Shown here one piece after another: positions 3,531 to 18,477 of a DNA stretch of 64,000 nt. The stretch is from an uncultured Chloroflexia bacterium (GTDB lineage: Bacteria > Chloroflexota > Dehalococcoidia > DSTF01 > JALHUB01), in NCBI GenBank assembly GCA_963703345.1, contig OY969814.1:416001-480000 (forward strand), in the 5' to 3' direction. The position numbers and the translations under genes are program-made. The notes under the pieces are model-generated. The model did not search any database. It was given only the letters and a program-made list of their open reading frames with translations, and was not told the origin of the DNA. Position 1 is the stretch's first letter. The number at the start of each line of letters is the position of its first letter.

Positions 3531-4385
3531 ATGGCAGAGGGGCTGCTAATGAATGACCTGCTATTGACCATCAAGATGGGCATCAACCCGGAGATCGGCC
3601 ACCTGGGCGGCCTTCTCCTGACCTGGCACGGCATTTTCATCGCTTTGGGCATCGGCCTGGGCGTATGGCTCGGCGTCTGGTTCGGGCGCAAGGCGGGCTT
3701 CACGGAGGACGACGCCTACACGATAGCCCTTATCGGCGTGCCTGCGGGCATCATCGGCGCCCGCGTCCTCTTCGTGCTGGAGAACCGCAGCGACTTCGCG
3801 AACGCGCCGCTCGATGTCTTCCGCATCAATCAGGGCGGCATTTCCTTGTACGGCGCGCTCATCGGCGGCGTCGGAGTTTGCCTCCTGTACGGCCTCTGGA
3901 AGAAGCTGCCCTTGCTTCGTGGCATGGACGCCGCCGCCTTCGGCATGATCCTTGGTCAGGGGATCGGACGCATCGGCTGTCTGGTCGCGGGCGACATCAT
4001 CGCCAAGTCGAGCTCGTTGCCCTTTGCCGTCGAGTACACGAACATCAACAGCCCGAGCTTCGCCTTGCGGCCGATGCAGTTCGTCACCGCCTACGAGGTG
4101 CTGGGCGACTTCATTATCCTGGGACTGCTGGTAGCGCTCTGGAAGTTCCGCGTCTTCAAGCGCGACGGCTTTCTTTTCTTCACTTACGCCGCGGCCTACT
4201 CGGCCATGCGATTTGGCATTAGCTTCATGCGCCTGGACAAAGAGGTCTATCTTGGTCTACGCATGGCCCAGTGGCTGGCCCTGGGCGTGATCGGCGTGTC
4301 GATCATTGCCTTCGCCCTGCTTCTCCTGCGCGGCGTCCGCGCGGCGCGACAGGCCGTTCCCGTGGAGCCGGCTGTCTCCGGCTAA
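3531..4385 (+). CDS. lgt: Prolipoprotein diacylglyceryl transferase
   Basis: GIIGARV, GGISLYG, GQGIGRIGC, YSAMRF motifs; multiple TM helices. Confidence 0.85.
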   Translation: MAEGLLMNDLLLTIKMGINPEIGHLGGLLLTWHGIFIALGIGLGVWLGVWFGRKAGFTEDDAYTIALIGVPAGIIGARVLFVLENRSDFANAPLDVFRINQGGISLYGALIGGVGVCLLYGLWKKLPLLRGMDAAAFGMILGQGIGRIGCLVAGDIIAKSSSLPFAVEYTNINSPSFALRPMQFVTAYEVLGDFIILGLLVALWKFRVFKRDGFLFFTYAAAYSAMRFGISFMRLDKEVYLGLRMAQWLALGVIGVSIIAFALLLLRGVRAARQAVPVEPAVSG

Positions 4386-6213: not shown

Positions 6214-9200
6214 CTAGGCGGCTTTCTTCTGCGGCTTGTGCATGACGCGCAAGTTCTTGAGGAAGGCATCCACGATGCCGGGGTCGAATTGAGTGCCGGC
6301 GCCATTCCGCAGCTCTTTGATCGCCTCTTTCTGTGATAGCGCCTTTCGGTAAGGCCGGTCCAGCGTCATCGCGGAGTAGGCGTCGACGACGGCGAGGATG
6401 CGCCCCAGCAACGGTATCTCGTCGCCCTTGAGCCCGCGCGGATAGCCCTTGCCGTCGATGCGTTCGTGGTGCGTCGCCACCGGCTCGATGGCGTCGGAGA
6501 TCTGGGCGATTCCCCTCACGATCATCTCGCCGAAGCGAACGTGCTGTTGCATGACCTGCCACTCGGCGCTGTCCAGGGGCCCGGGCTTGAGTAGCGTCTG
6601 GTCCGGAATCGCGATCTTGCCGACGTCGTGCAGAAGGGCCGCCTTACGCAAAGACTCCGTGTCCTCAGCGTTAAGGTTCAAGGTTCCCGCCACCATGTCA
6701 ACGTAGCGGACGTTGTCTTCGCAGTGTCGCCTGGTATAGGGGTCCTTGTGAGCTATGGCGTTGAGCAGCCCCTGGAGGAGACCGAAGCCCAAACTCTGCG
6801 ACGGCGTGGCGCCAAACGCCGATGCCGCCATCGCCCGGCTGCCACCCAGGCGCTTTGCGTCGTAAAGAGCGCCGTCGGCGAGCATGATGAGCTCGTCGAG
6901 CCTGGTACTGTCGTGCGGATAGCAGGCGATGCCGATGCTCATTCCAATAGTGACGGATGAAGTCTCCGAATCACCGATGACGAAGGGCGTATCCGACAGA
7001 TTAGTGGTTATGCGATGCGCGACCTCTTCCGCGGCCTCACGCATCGTATCCGGCAGGACGACCAAGAACTCGTCACCACCGTAGCGCCCGACGATGTCCG
7101 TTCCTCGTACTGTTTCCCGCAGTCTCTTGCTAATAAACCGCAGCGCCTCGTCGCCGTGGAGGTGGCCGTACGTGTCGTTGATGTCCTTGAACTTGTCTAC
7201 GTCCGTCATCATCACGGCGAACACCGAACTACTGCGTTCGGCGCGCGCGAACTCCTCTTCCAGCCGCTTGTGGATGTGCCGGTGGTTGAAGAGACCGGTC
7301 AGATGGTCGGTTATCGCCTGCTCCTGGAGCTGCTCGTGGAGGCGGGCGTTCTCGATGACCACGGCGGCCTGGCGGGCTATCGCCGCGAGAGTCTCGGTCT
7401 CCTCCTTGGGGAACTGGACCTTCTGGCGGAAAGCATCGACGCTCATGAGGCCGATGGTCCTGTCCTTGATCCGCAGGGGGTAGTGCACGATCGACTTAAC
7501 CTGGAAGGCATCGAGCCACCACTTTGGTACGAGCGACGACGTCAACGCGTCTTCGATGATTAGGGGCTCCTCCATTTCCGACAGCCTGCCGTAGAATTGC
7601 CGCAGGTCCGCAGAGGTTGCAGCTGCTCCGGCAAGGGCCTGGGAATTGCGGAAGCGCTCCCATGCCTCGGGATCTTCGACGCCCAGCGACATCTTGGGCG
7701 CCAGGCGCCCGTTTTCGTCCATCATGAATATGCTGCAGCGGTCGGCGACGCTCATGTCCACCGCCGTCTGGCATATCTTGACCAGCACCTTGTTCAAACC
7801 GAGGTTCGACGCGGCAGTCGTAAGCACATCAACCAGGGCCTCAGACCGCCGCCGCTGCTCCTGCTCCCTCTCGTAGACGCGGGCGTTCTCGATGACTACT
7901 GCGGCCTGCTTGGCGATGGCCGCCAGGGTATCGATTTCCCCCTTCGGAAAGTGCACCTGGTGGCGGAAGGCGTCCACCGTCATCATGCCGATGGTCTGGT
8001 CCTTCACCCTCAACGGGTATTGGGCGATCGACTTGATATCAAAGGTGTCGAGCCACCATTTCTCCAGCACCGGCGACAAGCTCGCGTCATCCCAGACGAT
8101 CGGCTCTTCCATCGTCATGACCGACTGGAACAGCTTCATCGACTCCGGCGCAAACTCGAATCCGGGACGCGGGTTGCGGAATCTCTTCCACAGCTCGGGG
8201 TCTTCGAGACCCAGCGACATAACGGGCTCCAGGTGCGAGCCGTCTTCGGCCATTAGGAAGATGCTGACGCGGTCGGCGACGCTGATGTCAACGACCGACT
8301 GACACAGCTTCGCCAGCACGGGCTTGAGGCTGAGCGTTGAAGCCGCGGCTGTCAAGACGTTCACGAGGGCCTCGGCGCGCTGCTGCTGTTGCTGCTGCTG
8401 CTCGTATAGCCGCACGTTCTCGATGATGACCGCCGCCTGCCTGGCGATTGCCGTCAGCGTCTCGACCTCGTCTTTGGGGAACTTCCGCTCACTGCCCATA
8501 GCTCCCACCATCATCATGCCGATGGTCCTGCCTTTGACGTTGAGGGGGTAGTAGACGATGGTCTTCACATCGAAGCTCTCCGCCCACCATCTGTGGAGGT
8601 AGGGGGAGGAAGAAACGTCCTCTACGATGACAGGCTTTCGCCGGCGGGCAAGAAGCTGATTGCAGCGACGCGCTTCGGGGCTCGCCATCACTTCGAGAGG
8701 AGGATTCAAGAACCGCTCTGCCGCCTCCGGATCGCCGTGATTCACGGTCGCCACGGGGCGGTCTCTGTCGAAGAGGAAGATCGAGACATTATCTCCAACG
8801 GTCAGTTCGAACGTCGCCTCACAGATTTTCGTACATGTTTCATTGACGCCGAGACTCGAAGAGGCGGCCGCAAGAACCTTCGTCAGCGTCTCACTGCGTT
8901 GGCGCTGCCTTTGTTCCCGCTCATAGAGACGCGTATTCTCGATGAGGACGGCGGCCTGCTTGGCAACGGCCGTCAGCATCTCTATTTCCGCCTGCGGGAA
9001 CTTCCGCTCCTCACCCATGGCCGCGGCGCATATGAAGCCGATGACCCTGCCCTTGACTCTCAGCGGGTAGTAGGCAAGCGACTTCAGCTTGAAGCTATCC
9101 ACCCACCATTTAATCGTATACGGAGAGGCAGCGACATCCTCAACAACCACGGGCGTCCGCCTCTTGGCCAGGGCGCGACTGAAGAGCCGCATGTCGGAGC

Positions 9201-11019
9201 TCGCGAGGATTCCCGGCGGTGGGTCCAGAAATATCTTCATTTTCTCTGAACCGCCCGCACCCGATGACGCCATGGGCACAACGCCCTTCTTCTCGTCAAA
9301 CAGGAAGATGGAGATGTTATTGCCCACAGTCAGATCGAGGGCCGTCTCACACACCTTGACGCATGCCTGGCGGAGGCTGAGCGTGGAGGAGGCGGCGGCC
9401 AGCATTCTCGCCAGTGCGTCGCTGCGTTGTCGCTGCTTTTGTTCCCGCTCATACAGGCGCGCGTTCTCGATGATGACCGCCGCCTGTTTGGCAATGGCCG
9501 CCAGGGTACCAATCTCCTCCAGGGAGAACTTTCGCTTTTCCCTGGCTGCCGCCACGCAGAGGAAACCGATCATCTTGCCCTTTGCTCTGAGGGGATAGTA
9601 CGCGATCGACTTCAAGTGGAAGCTCTTCATCCACCATGAGTCCGAGTGGGGTGAGGTTGCCACATCCTCTACGATATAGGGTTTCCGCCGTTTGGCCAGC
9701 ATACGGTCGAAGAGCAATAGCCCTGGGCTCGATTGGACCTCCGGCGGGGGATTGCGGAACGACTCCCGTTCTTCTCGGCCGCCTTTGCCGAGCGCGCTGA
9801 CGGGCATGTAGCTCCGGCTGTCTTCCCGCTGGAGGAAGATAGAGACGGTGTCGCCTACGGTCAGGTCGAGCGTTGCCTCACAAACCTTGGCGCACACCTG
9901 GCGGAGGCTGAGCGTGGAGGAGGCAGCGGCCAGCATTCTTGCCAGTGTGTCGCTGCGCTGTCGCTGCCGCTGTTCCCGTTCGTAGAGGCGCGTGTTCTCG
10001 ATGAGCACAGCTGCCTGCTTGGCAACGGCCGTCAGTGTGACCACTTCCTCCGGAGGAAACGACACGTAGTCGTCGTAGCTGTAGACGACCATCAAGCCCA
10101 CGGCCTTACGACGGCAAGCCAGCGGATAGCCCGCGGCCGACTTCACTTTGAAGTGCTTCAGCCACCTTTCCGGGACGAAGCCCGGGCGCGTCACGCGCTC
10201 CTCGATGATCGGGCGGAGGTTGCCGTCGTTGAGGGCGGCAAGGAAGGTCGTCGGGTCAAGGTCCGCCAGCAGCAGCTCCTGGCCAGCGTTCCAACGAAGT
10301 GGGCGGTCGCTGCCCTGGGCCATGACCGCTTCGACTGCCTGGTGGTTCTCGTTTAGCACGAATATGGCGCAGCGCTGCCCAACGCTAAGCTTCAGGACGG
10401 CGCGGGATAGCTTGGTCAGCAGCGTCTTCAGGGAAAGGCCCGGGCGCGGCGTTCCGATGATATTAACCATCGTGTCGGAGCGCTTTCGGGCGCTGCGCTC
10501 GCTCTCGAGAAGCGCCTCCGTTTGGATTCCTATCGTCGCGTAGCTTGCGAAGAGACCTGCCAGCCGCAACTCCCGCCGCGTGAGCCTGTGGTCCCTTTTG
10601 TAACCCACGGCGAAGCAGCCAACGATAGACCTTCCGTTCTTCAACGGCACCAGCAGAAGGCCCTTAAGCGGAACGGCCGGCGCCAGCTCTTCAAGGTAGG
10701 CGCGGTCGGTGACGATGTGAGGATGGCCTTTTGTGAATACCGAGCCGAAGGGGCCATCGCCGGCGCGGACCTTCCATCTAGCCACGCAGTCACCGGGCAG
10801 GCCGACGTGGCTCCGTATCGTAAGGAAACCCTCTTCGTCCACCAGCGAGATGGCGGCGATATCGCCCTTGAGGATTTCGCAGGCCAGTCTGGCCGCCGCG
10901 TCGAGCGTCTCCTGCGGGTTCACGGAGTAATTTGAGCGCGCCGCACGGCGTGCCGGTCGCGGCTTCTCTGCGAGCGTTCGCAGTCGTTTCTTCTTGGCTG
11001 GGCTCGTAGGTACGGACAT
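6214..11019 (-). CDS. Multi-GAF (7x) diguanylate cyclase / HD-GYP phosphodiesterase
   Basis: Repeated GAF units ending AKQAAVIIENARLYE; TDHLTGLFN, RGTD..RYGGDEF; HDVGK, HHERIDGKGYP. Confidence 0.93.
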   Translation of the reverse strand: MSVPTSPAKKKRLRTLAEKPRPARRAARSNYSVNPQETLDAAARLACEILKGDIAAISLVDEEGFLTIRSHVGLPGDCVARWKVRAGDGPFGSVFTKGHPHIVTDRAYLEELAPAVPLKGLLLVPLKNGRSIVGCFAVGYKRDHRLTRRELRLAGLFASYATIGIQTEALLESERSARKRSDTMVNIIGTPRPGLSLKTLLTKLSRAVLKLSVGQRCAIFVLNENHQAVEAVMAQGSDRPLRWNAGQELLLADLDPTTFLAALNDGNLRPIIEERVTRPGFVPERWLKHFKVKSAAGYPLACRRKAVGLMVVYSYDDYVSFPPEEVVTLTAVAKQAAVLIENTRLYEREQRQRQRSDTLARMLAAASSTLSLRQVCAKVCEATLDLTVGDTVSIFLQREDSRSYMPVSALGKGGREERESFRNPPPEVQSSPGLLLFDRMLAKRRKPYIVEDVATSPHSDSWWMKSFHLKSIAYYPLRAKGKMIGFLCVAAAREKRKFSLEEIGTLAAIAKQAAVIIENARLYEREQKQRQRSDALARMLAAASSTLSLRQACVKVCETALDLTVGNNISIFLFDEKKGVVPMASSGAGGSEKMKIFLDPPPGILASSDMRLFSRALAKRRTPVVVEDVAASPYTIKWWVDSFKLKSLAYYPLRVKGRVIGFICAAAMGEERKFPQAEIEMLTAVAKQAAVLIENTRLYEREQRQRQRSETLTKVLAAASSSLGVNETCTKICEATFELTVGDNVSIFLFDRDRPVATVNHGDPEAAERFLNPPLEVMASPEARRCNQLLARRRKPVIVEDVSSSPYLHRWWAESFDVKTIVYYPLNVKGRTIGMMMVGAMGSERKFPKDEVETLTAIARQAAVIIENVRLYEQQQQQQQRAEALVNVLTAAASTLSLKPVLAKLCQSVVDISVADRVSIFLMAEDGSHLEPVMSLGLEDPELWKRFRNPRPGFEFAPESMKLFQSVMTMEEPIVWDDASLSPVLEKWWLDTFDIKSIAQYPLRVKDQTIGMMTVDAFRHQVHFPKGEIDTLAAIAKQAAVVIENARVYEREQEQRRRSEALVDVLTTAASNLGLNKVLVKICQTAVDMSVADRCSIFMMDENGRLAPKMSLGVEDPEAWERFRNSQALAGAAATSADLRQFYGRLSEMEEPLIIEDALTSSLVPKWWLDAFQVKSIVHYPLRIKDRTIGLMSVDAFRQKVQFPKEETETLAAIARQAAVVIENARLHEQLQEQAITDHLTGLFNHRHIHKRLEEEFARAERSSSVFAVMMTDVDKFKDINDTYGHLHGDEALRFISKRLRETVRGTDIVGRYGGDEFLVVLPDTMREAAEEVAHRITTNLSDTPFVIGDSETSSVTIGMSIGIACYPHDSTRLDELIMLADGALYDAKRLGGSRAMAASAFGATPSQSLGFGLLQGLLNAIAHKDPYTRRHCEDNVRYVDMVAGTLNLNAEDTESLRKAALLHDVGKIAIPDQTLLKPGPLDSAEWQVMQQHVRFGEMIVRGIAQISDAIEPVATHHERIDGKGYPRGLKGDEIPLLGRILAVVDAYSAMTLDRPYRKALSQKEAIKELRNGAGTQFDPGIVDAFLKNLRVMHKPQKKAA

Positions 11020-15269: not shown

Positions 15270-15298
15270 ATTGTACGTTAAGGCGATCCTGCTGTCAA
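15270..15298 (-). promoter_or_regulatory. Near-consensus sigma70 promoter of the trm112-like operon
   Basis: TTGACA-17-TACAAT on the minus strand. Confidence 0.75.
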
Positions 15299-15318
15299 TT
15301 CTCGTGGCAATTAGGTAC

Positions 15319-15347
15319 TTGACACACCTGCCCATCTGTGCTATTCT
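15319..15347 (+). promoter_or_regulatory. Transposase promoter overlapping the left inverted repeat
   Basis: TTGACA-17-TATTCT with extended TG; GGAGG at 15362-15366. Confidence 0.7.
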
Positions 15348-15374
15348 CTAGGTAGATTCTTGGAGGTTAGCATC

Positions 15375-16355
15375 ATGGAAGGTAGCGAAGTCGGATTCCT
15401 CAAGGTTCTCCAGTGGAGCGAAGAACAGTGCCGCGAGTATCTGGAGCGGCAACGTTGGCCGGACGGCGCACACTGTCCGAAGTGTGGCGCGGCTGAGCCG
15501 TGGAAGATCACGCGCAAGACGGCGAGCAAGAACGCTGTCCGCTCGCTCTACCGCTGTCGCGCCTGTAAGCGGCAGTTCACGGCGACAGTCGGCACGATCT
15601 TCGAAGACTCCAAGATTCCCCTCAACAAGTGGTTTGCGGGCATATACCTGATGTGCTCCTCCAAGAAGGGCATCAGCGCCCATCAGTTGCACCGCGAACT
15701 AGAGATCACCTACAAGTCGGCGTGGTTCATGTGTCACCGCGTCCGCGAAGCGATGGGCGAGACTTATGATGCGCCCCTGAGCGGCACGGTTGAGGCCGAC
15801 GAAACCTACGTGGGTGCGCGGAGACGGCGCGGCCACAAGGTGATGCACGAGCGCATCAACGATGAGATTGAGATGGGCCTGCGACCACGGGCGCACCATG
15901 AGTTTAGCCACAAGGAAGTCGTGTTCGGCATACTGGAGAGGGGCGGAGGCGTTCGGACGTTCCATGTGACGGATGCGATAGCGCGAACTCTGAACCCCAT
16001 CCTCAAGGGCCACATGGACAAGGATGCGCGACTGATTACGGACGGCCATCCGGCCTACCGGATGATAAAGAACCACCTACAGCACGACGTGATTGACCAC
16101 GAAATCGAGTACGTGCGCGGGGACGTGCATACCCAAGGCATCGAGGGGTATTGGAGTATCCTCAAGCGCGGGCTCTATGGCGTCTTCCAGCACGTCGATG
16201 CGCGGTACTTGAGCGAGTACCTACGGGAGTTCGAGTTCCGCTTTAACCGTCGTGGGCTTCGCGATCAGGAGCGCTTTGCTCAGTTGCTGGCGCAGACTCA
16301 GGGGCGGGTTCAGTGGTATTGCCGGACGCCTCAGCCTCAGAATCCGTTCGCTTAG
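15375..16355 (+). CDS. IS1595-family DDE transposase
   Basis: CPKC/CRAC Zn ribbon, KKGISAHQL HTH, VEADETY, LITDG, TQGIEGYWSILKR, YLREFEFRFNRR. Confidence 0.96.
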   Translation: MEGSEVGFLKVLQWSEEQCREYLERQRWPDGAHCPKCGAAEPWKITRKTASKNAVRSLYRCRACKRQFTATVGTIFEDSKIPLNKWFAGIYLMCSSKKGISAHQLHRELEITYKSAWFMCHRVREAMGETYDAPLSGTVEADETYVGARRRRGHKVMHERINDEIEMGLRPRAHHEFSHKEVVFGILERGGGVRTFHVTDAIARTLNPILKGHMDKDARLITDGHPAYRMIKNHLQHDVIDHEIEYVRGDVHTQGIEGYWSILKRGLYGVFQHVDARYLSEYLREFEFRFNRRGLRDQERFAQLLAQTQGRVQWYCRTPQPQNPFA

Positions 16356-16437
16356 CTTGAGCGAGCCGCTTCATCGCCTCATCGAAGGGCATGTCGAGTC
16401 TAACGGTCGTGTCTTCGTGCTTGCGAGGCTTGTTCAC
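16243..16437 (-). CDS. Small IS passenger protein (64 aa), antisense overlap with transposase 3' end
   Basis: GTG start overlaps the HEPN stop (GTGA), with a GGAGG-like RBS upstream; LDMPFDEAMKRL amphipathic helix. Confidence 0.55.
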   Translation of the reverse strand: MNKPRKHEDTTVRLDMPFDEAMKRLAQAKRTDSEAEASGNTTEPAPESAPATEQSAPDREAHDG

Positions 16438-16904
16438 TGCCGCCTCCTATACGCCTGCAGGGAGCCTATATCAGGCACGAGGCTTCGAGCCTTTACCATC
16501 GCAGTCCTAGCCAGTCCAGACCATCCGCTTACCCGATAGTGCTGGAACAGTTGCCCCTTTATCTGCTCTCTGTCTGAATTGCGATAGTAGTCGGCCTGAT
16601 GCCTCATTGATCGGAGTTCGCCAAGTTCATCTGATAGGCGCTTGGCAAACCCAGCGCGCATCCCAGTATTCTGCTTTATGGCATTGGAGACGATCTCATG
16701 TTCTGAGGCGTGCTTATCGCCGCCTAGCGATTTGCGAACTGTCCGGGTTAATGCAGCGTGATCGTCACCGAACATTCGGTCACGCGCCATGAGATGACAC
16801 GCGTAATAGGCGCGGTTGATCGCAGTTCGGAGTTCGGCTTCGGTGGAACCCTCGGCAAGCCTCTCGCCGAGCGTCAGGCATTCCATTGGATCGAAGAGGG
16901 GCAT
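16434..16904 (-). CDS. HEPN domain protein (putative RNase toxin)
   Basis: RTAINRAYYACH, conserved H, LRSMRHQADY: pattern of the UPF0332-type HEPN group. Confidence 0.85.
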   Translation of the reverse strand: MPLFDPMECLTLGERLAEGSTEAELRTAINRAYYACHLMARDRMFGDDHAALTRTVRKSLGGDKHASEHEIVSNAIKQNTGMRAGFAKRLSDELGELRSMRHQADYYRNSDREQIKGQLFQHYRVSGWSGLARTAMVKARSLVPDIGSLQAYRRRQ

Positions 16905-16907
16905 TGG

Positions 16908-17462
16908 TTACTCGCTCCAAGAGAAGCGGAGAGCCACGTTCTTCAGGAGCACATCTCGATCATAAATCGGCAGTCGGCCAAGCCACCTGTCAACATCGAT
17001 ATCAAGAGACTTCCAAAGGGCAAACGCCTGACTCGAATTGCCTGATACATGTACCACCAAGATTGTCTGGCTCCCGCTCCCTTCGCTCTCCTCCTCGCCA
17101 CCGATCTCGCCATCAACGTGCAATCCTGATTGGAGCGCCTTGCTTCGAACAATGGACCATAATCTATTGGCGACATCGAGCCGCTTATCTGTGAAGGCGT
17201 GGTGGTTTTTCGGATGGCGTTCTAGCGGCCGAAACCGCTGCAGTGGCGGAACCCTTCGTTCGGTTGATGGTTTTCGGCCTAGCCGGTGGTCTGCGCGCAC
17301 CTCGTTCTCGTCTCGTGCACCGTTATCATCGATAATCCGAACCATCGGTTCCCGATCTTCAAGAGGAGACCATGCAATCTCCTGTCCCTCGGATAGCCGG
17401 AGAAGCAAGTCGCCAAGCGACGAAGTGTTGCGTTCGAGACTCGCGATGTTCGCCGTTACCAT
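16908..17462 (-). CDS. Hypothetical IS passenger protein, putative HEPN partner/antitoxin (alternative start 17504)
   Basis: Ends 3 nt before the HEPN start; polar N-terminal half plus compact alpha/beta C-terminal ~90 aa. Confidence 0.7.
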   Translation of the reverse strand: MVTANIASLERNTSSLGDLLLRLSEGQEIAWSPLEDREPMVRIIDDNGARDENEVRADHRLGRKPSTERRVPPLQRFRPLERHPKNHHAFTDKRLDVANRLWSIVRSKALQSGLHVDGEIGGEEESEGSGSQTILVVHVSGNSSQAFALWKSLDIDVDRWLGRLPIYDRDVLLKNVALRFSWSE

Positions 17463-17472
17463 GATCTCTTGC

Positions 17473-18153
17473 CTATCTTGTGATGTCGTTGAGAATGCGG
17501 TCAATCAAACCGTCCGCAGATTCGGCCACCGCCTCGGTCGCTTCGCTTTCCTCATTGCGGTAGATCATATCTATGTGGAACCGGGCATGAGCGGCAGTGT
17601 TCACGGGGACAATGGTAAGTTCCGCCCAATTCTGTCTGTTGGGATCAAGGCCAGAGGGCGCAAACCTGATTCCATAAGGCGCAAACGCCGTACCGTCAGA
17701 CTGGAAAGAATCTGCTAACGCTCGTCCGAGGGCCTCCGTTTTGTCAACGCCACTCCACCACCTGGCGATCACGTCTATCGGGTCAACCCCCTGCTTTCGC
17801 GCTTGGCCGATGTACCGAAACTCAGCGTAGTCCACGGCAACCGTCGGGGCAAAATCGCTCACCTCGCGAGCCGCCTGTTGTAGTTCGCGATACCCCGAAA
17901 GCACTTCAGCGGTGTCGTTGCCAGTCACACCGAGGACATTATTCTTTTGGTCGAGGATCAGCCGAAGGTTGCCCCGCTTCGGGGCTTTTGTTCTTATTCC
18001 CTCCTCATCCTCGATTCGCTCCTCCACCACCCAGCCCAATTCGGGGACGCGGTCTAGAAGAGGAAGTAGGTTGATAGGGTAAAACACACTGTCGAAGCGC
18101 TGAATCAGAGTGACTCTGAGCGGGATTCGTTCCCAGGTAGTATCTGGCATCAT
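17473..18153 (-). CDS. Hypothetical IS passenger protein, possibly TIGR04255-like
   Basis: 226 aa, first gene of the cargo operon; AEFRYIG and FHIDMIY resemble motifs of that family (by eye). Confidence 0.7.
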   Translation of the reverse strand: MMPDTTWERIPLRVTLIQRFDSVFYPINLLPLLDRVPELGWVVEERIEDEEGIRTKAPKRGNLRLILDQKNNVLGVTGNDTAEVLSGYRELQQAAREVSDFAPTVAVDYAEFRYIGQARKQGVDPIDVIARWWSGVDKTEALGRALADSFQSDGTAFAPYGIRFAPSGLDPNRQNWAELTIVPVNTAAHARFHIDMIYRNEESEATEAVAESADGLIDRILNDITR

Positions 18154-18207
18154 CTACCCGCCGCCCCCGATGATTCGGGCGGCCCAAACTCATATATCTG
18201 CGCCCCC

Positions 18208-18236
18208 ATTTGATCATATTCGTCAGCATTTGTCAA
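18208..18236 (-). promoter_or_regulatory. Putative promoter of the IS cargo operon
   Basis: TTGACA-17-TCAAAT on the minus strand, inside the element. Confidence 0.5.
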
Positions 18237-18477
18237 GACGACCAGTGCCACTACCCCTAAGCGGCGTTCGCATCGCGCCCCGATCCTACGACTTTCCCTC
18301 AAGGTGTGTAAAGTAGTCAATTGCCATTCTCGTGAGCCCTAAGGCGGCTGGGCGCAACCTGCGCCTCTGGAGTTACCGTGCTCTTGCGCCGACATATCCA
18401 GCAAATACCGTCGCTATGGACGCCTTCCTGAATGAGTTCCTATAATTGAGCAAGGAGTTGAATAAGAAGCCAAACTG

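Follow-up and report, generated by a model that had tools for sequence, protein, structure and literature searches.

The 64,000-nucleotide window analysed here (contig OY969814.1 of assembly GCA_963703345.1, positions 416,001 to 480,000) comes from an uncultured Chloroflexia bacterium and contains an insertion sequence (IS) of the IS1595 family. This element carries three adjacent genes, g1, g2 and g3, which form a candidate toxin-antitoxin (TA) module, and a small fourth open reading frame (ORF), g4. The parts of the element are arranged as follows:

15306-18325: IS1595 element, 3020 bp
15298..15305: left target-site duplication, ATTCTCGT, present as one copy at the empty site in genome G687
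18326..18333: right target-site duplication, ATTCTCGT
15306..15329, plus strand: left terminal inverted repeat, its first 23 bases being the same in the elements of genomes G340 and G791
18302..18325, minus strand: right terminal inverted repeat
15360..16355, plus strand: IS1595-family DDE transposase with an N-terminal zinc ribbon, 331 aa counted from TTG
17473..18153, minus strand: g1, 226 aa, acidic, from an unnamed family and predicted to bind the tail of g2
16908..17462, minus strand: g2, 184 aa, predicted antitoxin, consisting of an extension of about 91 residues and a 93-residue alpha/beta core
16434..16904, minus strand: g3, a 156-aa HEPN protein (retron-IX/AF0298 type, R..ADY), predicted to be a toxin with RNase activity
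16243..16437, minus strand: g4, a 64-aa ORF overlapping the 3' end of the transposase gene antisense by 113 nt

Both marks of an IS1595 insertion, inverted repeats and an 8-bp target duplication, are present. The terminal repeats match at 19/23 and 20/24 positions and are the longest inverted pair of the region, and ATTCTCGT stands on both flanks. The transposase matches the IS1595 model NF033547 with an E-value of 2e-60 (204 bits against a cut-off of 75) and is also matched by PF12762 and PF12760; its start is probably the ATG at 15375, which lies behind GGAGG, rather than the TTG. The uninterrupted site, on one contig and with one copy, ATTCTCG(T), was found in G687 and G791, two of five further genomes of the same genus. 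An earlier reading made from the letters of this DNA (the sequence-only reading) had described an IS1595 element with 19/23 repeats, a perfect 8-bp duplication and two thirds of AT-richer cargo, and these points hold. The cargo makes up 1970 of the 3020 bp (65%) and has a GC content of 55.6%, compared with 64.4% for the genome, in which only 0.4% of the 2-kb genome windows are that low. Its ORFs of 226, 184, 156 and 64 aa share the minus strand and are spaced by 10, 3 and -4 nt. The element is present in a single copy in the host genome, which has one other IS1595 with different cargo. In one DNA run, contigs were found for parts of the element, one of them spanning the left junction, with no joint across it; no RNA dataset was listed as containing it. 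IS1595 members can carry passenger genes, and with its transposase, repeats of about 24 bp, 8-bp duplication and antisense cargo the backbone is ordinary for the family.

The three genes g1, g2 and g3 recur as a unit. We gathered 15 distinct g1 loci including the window, with L006 and L021 counted as one locus; L004, whose contig breaks off within g1, and L052, a match at E 8e-4 that lacks a HEPN, had been left out before counting. One of the 15 stops within g1, and 12 of the remaining 14, all with downstream sequence, show the order g1-g2-HEPN. Co-occurrence had been chosen beforehand as a test that could refute the proposal of a recurring three-gene unit distinct from a classical pair of HEPN and minimal nucleotidyltransferase (MNT), and the proposal came through it. 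The two g1 loci outside the triad comprise one in which g1 has a partner other than g2, with a PIN gene (PF01850, E 2e-9) next in line, and one at a contig edge whose partner has a weak DUF5678-like end (E 0.1).

Parts of IS1595 lie beside only three of the 12 triads (window, L002 and L001) and were absent from the fetched flanks of the other nine. The three IS1595-borne triads form a single branch in both trees. On this evidence the module appears to predate its carriage by this IS. Among named loci the closest is L001, from a Dehalococcoidia genome. The module is rare and patchy: g1 was found in 9/401 genomes of the class, 2/401 of the phylum and 1/93 of the order, and in the same 401-genome class sample g2 occurs in 22 and this HEPN in 36. 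Judged by the ratios of nonsynonymous to synonymous substitution (dN/dS) against L002, namely 0.09, 0.12 and 0.15, g1, g2 and g3 are under purifying selection. The triad of genome G140 (L012:2509-4202) has its HEPN gene split by a frameshift; it adjoins terminase- and portal-like ORFs, named by their appearance, and thus lies at a prophage edge. Some loci have defence-type genes as neighbours, which was counted in favour of the proposal made below: L025 and L030 are situated beside ORFs that resemble restriction-modification and PIN/HicAB genes, again by sequence appearance. Plasmid searches gave no match for g1 or g3, and for one distant g1 there was none in phages either.

Searches of PADLOC, Pfam and NCBIfam assigned the module to no named system and gave only a weak HEPN match, in agreement with the sequence-only reading, which had called it a candidate undescribed system; g1 and g2 gave no meaningful match in the 2023 PADLOC library. 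We found no description of it in a literature search whose coverage largely excluded subscription papers and bioRxiv supplements. What is new is the combination of parts and the association of the g2 tail with g1; the IS and the kinds of parts were already known.

For g3, the sole profile match of the window protein is PADLOC HEPN_IX (E 4e-4), which matches 7 of 15 g3 members with a best E-value of 6e-8. Two of eight more distant, g1-free relatives exceed the cut-off of the Pfam HEPN family PF05168, and weak PDB matches were obtained to 9xbd, 36ht, 9xbc and 2hsb (E 0.06-0.9). R26, Y33, R101, D105 and Y106 are invariant over 27 HEPN sequences, R31 is also conserved, and H69 is present in 26. 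The proteins are mostly basic (isoelectric point, pI, above 8 in 22/27). The gene had been read as a HEPN with the motif RHQADY: the domain and the conserved R101 stand, whereas the histidine of that motif (H102) occurs in only one of the 27 sequences and H69 is conserved instead. The canonical Rx4-6H motif is thus absent from g3, which has R..AD-Y. In AF0298-like HEPNs an upstream histidine replaces that of the motif, according to the accessible text of PMC3710099, and the accessible part of 10.64898/2026.07.14.738597 describes the HEPN of retron-Kva2 as lacking Rx4-6H, using H64 and R122, being toxic alone and cutting tRNA and rRNA. With H69 and R101 as presumed equivalents of these residues, g3 would be an active RNase, and we consider this activity very probable. 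The module shares with type IX retrons (retron-Kva2) the best profile and a His and Arg site without Rx4-6H. It differs in its control parts. The element holds only a transposase and four ORFs, none of them resembling a reverse transcriptase; no noncoding RNA or winged-helix gene was noted, an Rfam search not being included.

The second gene, g2, starts at ATG 17462, the start shared by all four close homologues. In the predicted structure residues 1-90 have a predicted local distance difference test (pLDDT) score below 50, and the core of about 93 residues reaches a value near 70. In 16 of 17 places where g2 occurs without g1, the HEPN gene is directly next, and this pairing together with the gene position suggests that g2 is an antitoxin acting by binding, a role that we regard as probable. 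The g2 cores are acidic in 20/28 cases. The nearest ESM Atlas cluster of g2 is unnamed (0.90), with recognition below the threshold of the tool, and a match to RpoS (E 0.006 over 28 residues) was taken as chance.

An MNT-like fold had been proposed for the g2 core, and such folds are indeed among its structural matches, but only as one of several tied ones. RimP (root-mean-square deviation, rmsd, 2.6 over 74 aligned residues), Rel (2.7 over 80), CapRel (3.5 over 93) and CdnE are tied at Z-scores of at most 7.2; about 21 of the top 50 rows are nucleotidyltransferase-superfamily enzymes by title, and Foldseek places OsmC first (E 1.7e-3). A nucleotidyltransferase origin of the core is possible. 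The absence of the GS/DxD motif reported earlier is confirmed, since F/Y-G-S occurs in 0/28 cores and no DxD is conserved; 13 further g2 proteins gave no Pfam nucleotidyltransferase match. These data bear on an alternative in which g2 would be an active minimal nucleotidyltransferase that AMPylates Y106 of the HEPN, so that the locus would amount to a normal type VII pair and g1, upstream, would be a bystander. The order of partner and then HEPN, the share of nucleotidyltransferases among the fold matches and the invariance of Y106 in the 27 sequences are in line with this. With the catalytic motifs and the Pfam match missing, RimP tying for first place, Foldseek favouring OsmC and the g2 tail tracking g1, we regard it as highly improbable. 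From HEPN-MNT systems (type VII/type II; the AF0298/UPF0332-type HEPN-T clade as given in the accessible text of PMC3710099) the module has in common the partner upstream of a small HEPN, a retained arginine with the histidine of Rx4H replaced by an N-terminal one and, possibly, a nucleotidyltransferase-like g2 core. It differs from them by the long tail of g2, its lack of GS/DxD and of any Pfam match, and by a third gene that looks obligatory in this branch.

This third protein, g1, belongs to a family for which the profile search gave 143 clusters (50% identity). Of its members 128 were aligned, and none meaningfully matches any Pfam, NCBIfam or PADLOC family, the SecB family of Pfam and NCBIfam included, and a PDB sequence search returned nothing significant; a RecX match was taken as chance. 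The nearest ESM Atlas cluster is unnamed and rich in archaea (0.94), again with recognition below the tool threshold. Most members are acidic (pI below 6 in 105/128), which weakly favours protein binding over nucleic-acid binding; R199 is invariant (128/128) and E111 is present in 124/128. The model of g1 (pLDDT 95) has a saddle-shaped alpha/beta sheet resembling the TATA-binding protein (TBP; Z 8.1-8.3, rmsd 5.7, about 160 aligned residues; Foldseek E 1e-4, TM 0.38) and, equally, arginine kinase/McsB (Z 7.8-8.1, rmsd 3.6-4.2). The two halves show no significant sequence repeat (E 0.07). The fold matches listed do not include RnlA, LsoA or SecB, an absence that excludes nothing.

The two tied folds each suggest a different role for g1. 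It could be an enzyme of the glutamine-synthetase/guanido-kinase fold, similar to McsB, and control the turnover of the antitoxin by modifying either the g2 tail or the toxin. The lower rmsd to the kinases within the tie, the conservation of R199 and E111 and the Arg-rich tail in the window would suit such an enzyme; the few conserved polar residues (E111, R163, R199), an identity to kinases of 5-10%, the lack of any Pfam, NCBIfam or PDB sequence match and Z-scores near the background quoted for the tool make it quite unlikely. Alternatively, with TBP as the top fold match, g1 might be a free TBP1-TBP2 part of a split RnlA, binding substrate and docking on and activating the HEPN, with g2 similar to RnlB. 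RnlA consists of TBP1, TBP2 and HEPN and needs TBP1 for substrate binding, as stated in the accessible part of PMC8266594. In RnlAB/LsoAB as in our module, a single operon encodes two TBP-like lobes together with a HEPN RNase and a small antitoxin of alpha/beta type. However, in RnlA the TBP and HEPN parts are fused and the HEPN has Rx4-6H, which g3 lacks, RnlB is fully folded and no sequence link was found; in the module they are separate genes in 12/12 triads, fused forms of other lengths being outside the search. Moreover, the HEPN-g2 pair occurs without g1 at 16 loci, g1 also stands before a PIN pair and is acidic, and the tail would be left unexplained. We therefore consider a split RnlA very unlikely.

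What connects g1 to g2 is the length of the stretch that precedes the g2 core. In all 12 g1-linked loci it comprises 91-191 aa (median 96), with a start adjoining the g1 stop, whereas in 13 of 16 g1-free loci it is at most 57 aa (median of all 16, 40), counted there from the first possible start. In the tree of g2 cores the g1-linked label needs five changes, two of them forced by well-supported branches, and short forms are neighbours of long ones or interspersed with them; the association of g1 with the extension is therefore not a single inherited event. With a dN/dS of about 0.12 against L002 the extension is coding, although poorly conserved, and its FoldIndex is below that of the core in 11/12 loci.

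This pattern gives comparative support to the earlier idea of g1 as a sensor or chaperone; binding by g1 is a prediction. It agrees with the design of toxin-antitoxin-chaperone (TAC) systems, of which HigBAC, CmdTAC, MqsRAC and M. tuberculosis HigBA1-SecB are covered in the accessible text of 10.1101/2024.02.24.581848. According to that text, a SecB-like chaperone binds an unstructured tail of the antitoxin, an ordinary pair of two genes results when the 96-residue tail is removed, and the toxin is freed when a phage protein competes for the chaperone. Shared with TAC, as far as that text goes, are three coupled genes with a toxin targeting translation (predicted here), an unstructured antitoxin extension of about 96 residues that accompanies the third gene (its degree of disorder here being uncertain), exchangeable toxins and tail-less two-gene forms. 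In contrast to TAC, the third protein is not SecB-like, the gene order is third gene, antitoxin, toxin, and the tail is N-terminal, with g2 ending in its folded core, where TAC antitoxins have a disordered C-terminal chaperone-addiction domain (ChAD). The toxin is a HEPN, a type that the accessible text does not mention.

We propose, with an even chance of being right, a TAC-like module composed of a HEPN toxin, the g2 antitoxin and g1 as tail-binder in place of SecB. The HEPN toxin g3, likely cutting RNA, would be kept silent by the folded core of g2, probably through binding. The third protein, g1, would bind the long N-terminal tail of g2 and thereby keep the antitoxin functional; of this binding we are only slightly more convinced than not. 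If a phage protein or stress drew g1 off, the tail would be freed and the antitoxin lost, and the HEPN dimer, no longer restrained, could arrest the cell by cutting host tRNA or rRNA. By analogy with the chaperones of phage-sensing TAC, g1 would likely act as the trigger, and that the trigger is a phage is conceivable, at somewhat less than an even chance. The charges of the three proteins, with acidic g1, basic HEPNs and acidic g2 cores, were counted in favour of this TAC-like proposal.

Several observations weigh against it. The fold of g1 is tied between TBP and arginine kinase/McsB near background and, on this model, reveals no function, and the low pLDDT of the g2 tail rests on an alignment of five sequences. 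The extension is disordered outright in only 3/12 loci. The nominal p of 0.003 for extension length versus g1 is overstated, because four of the short g2 forms come from one genus, and several contrasts in the g2-core tree are weakly supported. Three of the 16 g1-free g2 genes have long possible extensions (115-128 aa). One of these, in G678, is at a contig edge, a second, G541b, has neither a contig edge nor an upstream ORF to explain it, and the third, in G419, is preceded by a 228-aa ORF for which no link to g1 was obtained (E 0.24). The equivalence of H69/R101 and Kva2 H64/R122 is suggested by family and spacing, not by a structural alignment. Finally, most triad loci are found among housekeeping genes and not in defence islands.

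The ORF upstream of g2 in G419 (L050:2088-2771, minus strand) matches neither g1 nor TIGR04255 significantly; it is possibly a third family in the g1 slot.

The distribution also bears on an explanation without any phage role, in which the locus would be a TA unit retaining itself and the IS, or a stress response, with g1 as an accessory regulator and the tail link structural only. The sporadic distribution (9/401 in the class, 1/93 in the order), the low-GC insertions among housekeeping genes and the single copy on an IS are what one would expect from such a unit. On the other hand, the fetched flanks of nine of the 12 triads are free of IS1595 parts, the characterised HEPN type that comes closest acts as an anti-phage effector in the accessible text on retron-Kva2, and the same IS backbone bears other nuclease-like cargo. 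We consider this explanation unlikely.

The first gene had been likened to TIGR04255-type proteins. In sequence this does not hold: neither the g1 of the window nor any of the 128 members matches TIGR04255 at its cut-off of 30 bits, and hhalign detected no significant profile-profile similarity (E 0.15 local, 0.96 global). Membership of g1 in this family was thus rejected, and the likeness is one of locus layout. We compared 24 TIGR04255 loci of the host's phylum, in which the model matches 23/231 genomes; one further locus was left out, and the layout was read from ORFs. In most of them TIGR04255 is followed by a partner whose N-terminal part is long, and this by a gene that varies. This HEPN type occurs in 4/24 (E 4e-15 to 4e-8), the partner cores weakly match the g2 core (E 6e-4, probability 28%), and both first genes, g1 and TIGR04255, are acidic. 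In these loci (L086-L109) the third gene varies among HEPN, PDC-M32B-like and others, forming an unnamed three-gene family, and three other partners and one downstream gene match PDC-M32 models. A literature search for 'TIGR04255' gave no match. By the features tested, the module is not a member of TAC, HEPN-MNT, RnlAB, retron IX or TIGR04255.

The cargo had also been described as a tight antisense operon of four genes. The ORFs, their strand and their spacing are as described, but g4 goes with the IS backbone, and a four-gene operon was rejected. The g4 ORF was found in only 2/12 triad loci, both IS-borne, whereas similar ORFs are present in the elements of L002, G340 and G791, the last two of which bear other cargo. 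It is retained in 4/4 elements of this backbone with the common stretch HxDT..L...FDEAM..LAQAKR, and its dN/dS against L002 is about 0.06 (27 non-overlapping codons). On this evidence g4 is part of the backbone and outside the toxin module, and it might serve to regulate the IS. A search with g4 gave no match of note.

Two promoter-like sites lie at the ends of the element:

18283..18312, minus strand: promoter-like site TTTACA-18-TAGGAT, 9/12, beginning in the right inverted repeat and facing the cargo
15319-15347, plus strand: sigma70-like site TTGACA-17-TATTCT, with its -35 box in the left inverted repeat, facing the transposase

The first is a consensus match only, from a promoter scan; L002 has TAGAAT at the position of TAGGAT. 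An inward-facing -35-like box is present in both inverted repeats, and the right one may therefore be a built-in promoter for any cargo. The TTGACA-type promoter formerly assigned to g1 (18236-18231) was not upheld, its TATGAT lying at a spacing of 12 nt and the scan leaving it uncalled.

The intergenic target site looks like an insertion hot spot. In G340 a different element with TG...CA ends and inverted repeats of about 24 bp, which we take to be IS21-like, lies within a base or two of the target of the IS described here (at the end of L010 and the start of L009), and G790 seems to diverge immediately past the target. Judged from its sequences, this IS1595 lineage serves as a carrier, exchanging nuclease-like cargo among close relatives. 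The same backbone is present in G340 (L013:2103-5199, 3097 bp, perfect 8-bp duplication) with other cargo, namely a g4-like ORF, a 149-aa ORF, a 292-aa ORF with an RxxxxH motif and a tRNA-Ala(AGC) called by ARAGORN at 4048-4121; an AGC anticodon is unusual for bacterial tRNA-Ala. In G791 (L110, 91% identity) it carries a g4-like ORF, a 130-aa unknown ORF and a 79-aa ORF that appears HNH-like. The second IS1595 of the host genome (G000:C1:1640625-1642340, L014) is likewise flanked by an 8-bp duplication; at its left end it has a small antisense ORF of its own, and its passenger is an unknown protein of 188 aa. Elsewhere in the window, positions 6214-11019 (minus strand) hold a 1601-aa ORF; from its sequence one can read some six GAF-like repeats in tandem and, after them, domains resembling GGDEF and HD-GYP.

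TAC is one of the few TA designs with an understood phage trigger, and all systems in the accessible text of 10.1101/2024.02.24.581848 use SecB. If the proposed TAC-like module is real, the occurrence of one antitoxin-HEPN pair in two forms, either with a tail and third gene or lacking both, would mean that the logic of TAC has arisen again with another fold. As a wider and more tentative idea, to which we give roughly one chance in three, g1 could define a SecB-independent class of chaperone-addicted TA systems, in which a saddle-fold protein binds N-terminal tails grafted on unrelated antitoxins and turns HEPN, PIN and other pairs into switches that sense phages; the class would extend across bacteria and probably to archaea, and TIGR04255 would be a sister family, either parallel or distant. 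The proposal would also provide a function for two unnamed families, g1 (at least 143 clusters) and the g2 core, and a suggestion for the TIGR04255 operons, and the module would add a small non-canonical HEPN nuclease.

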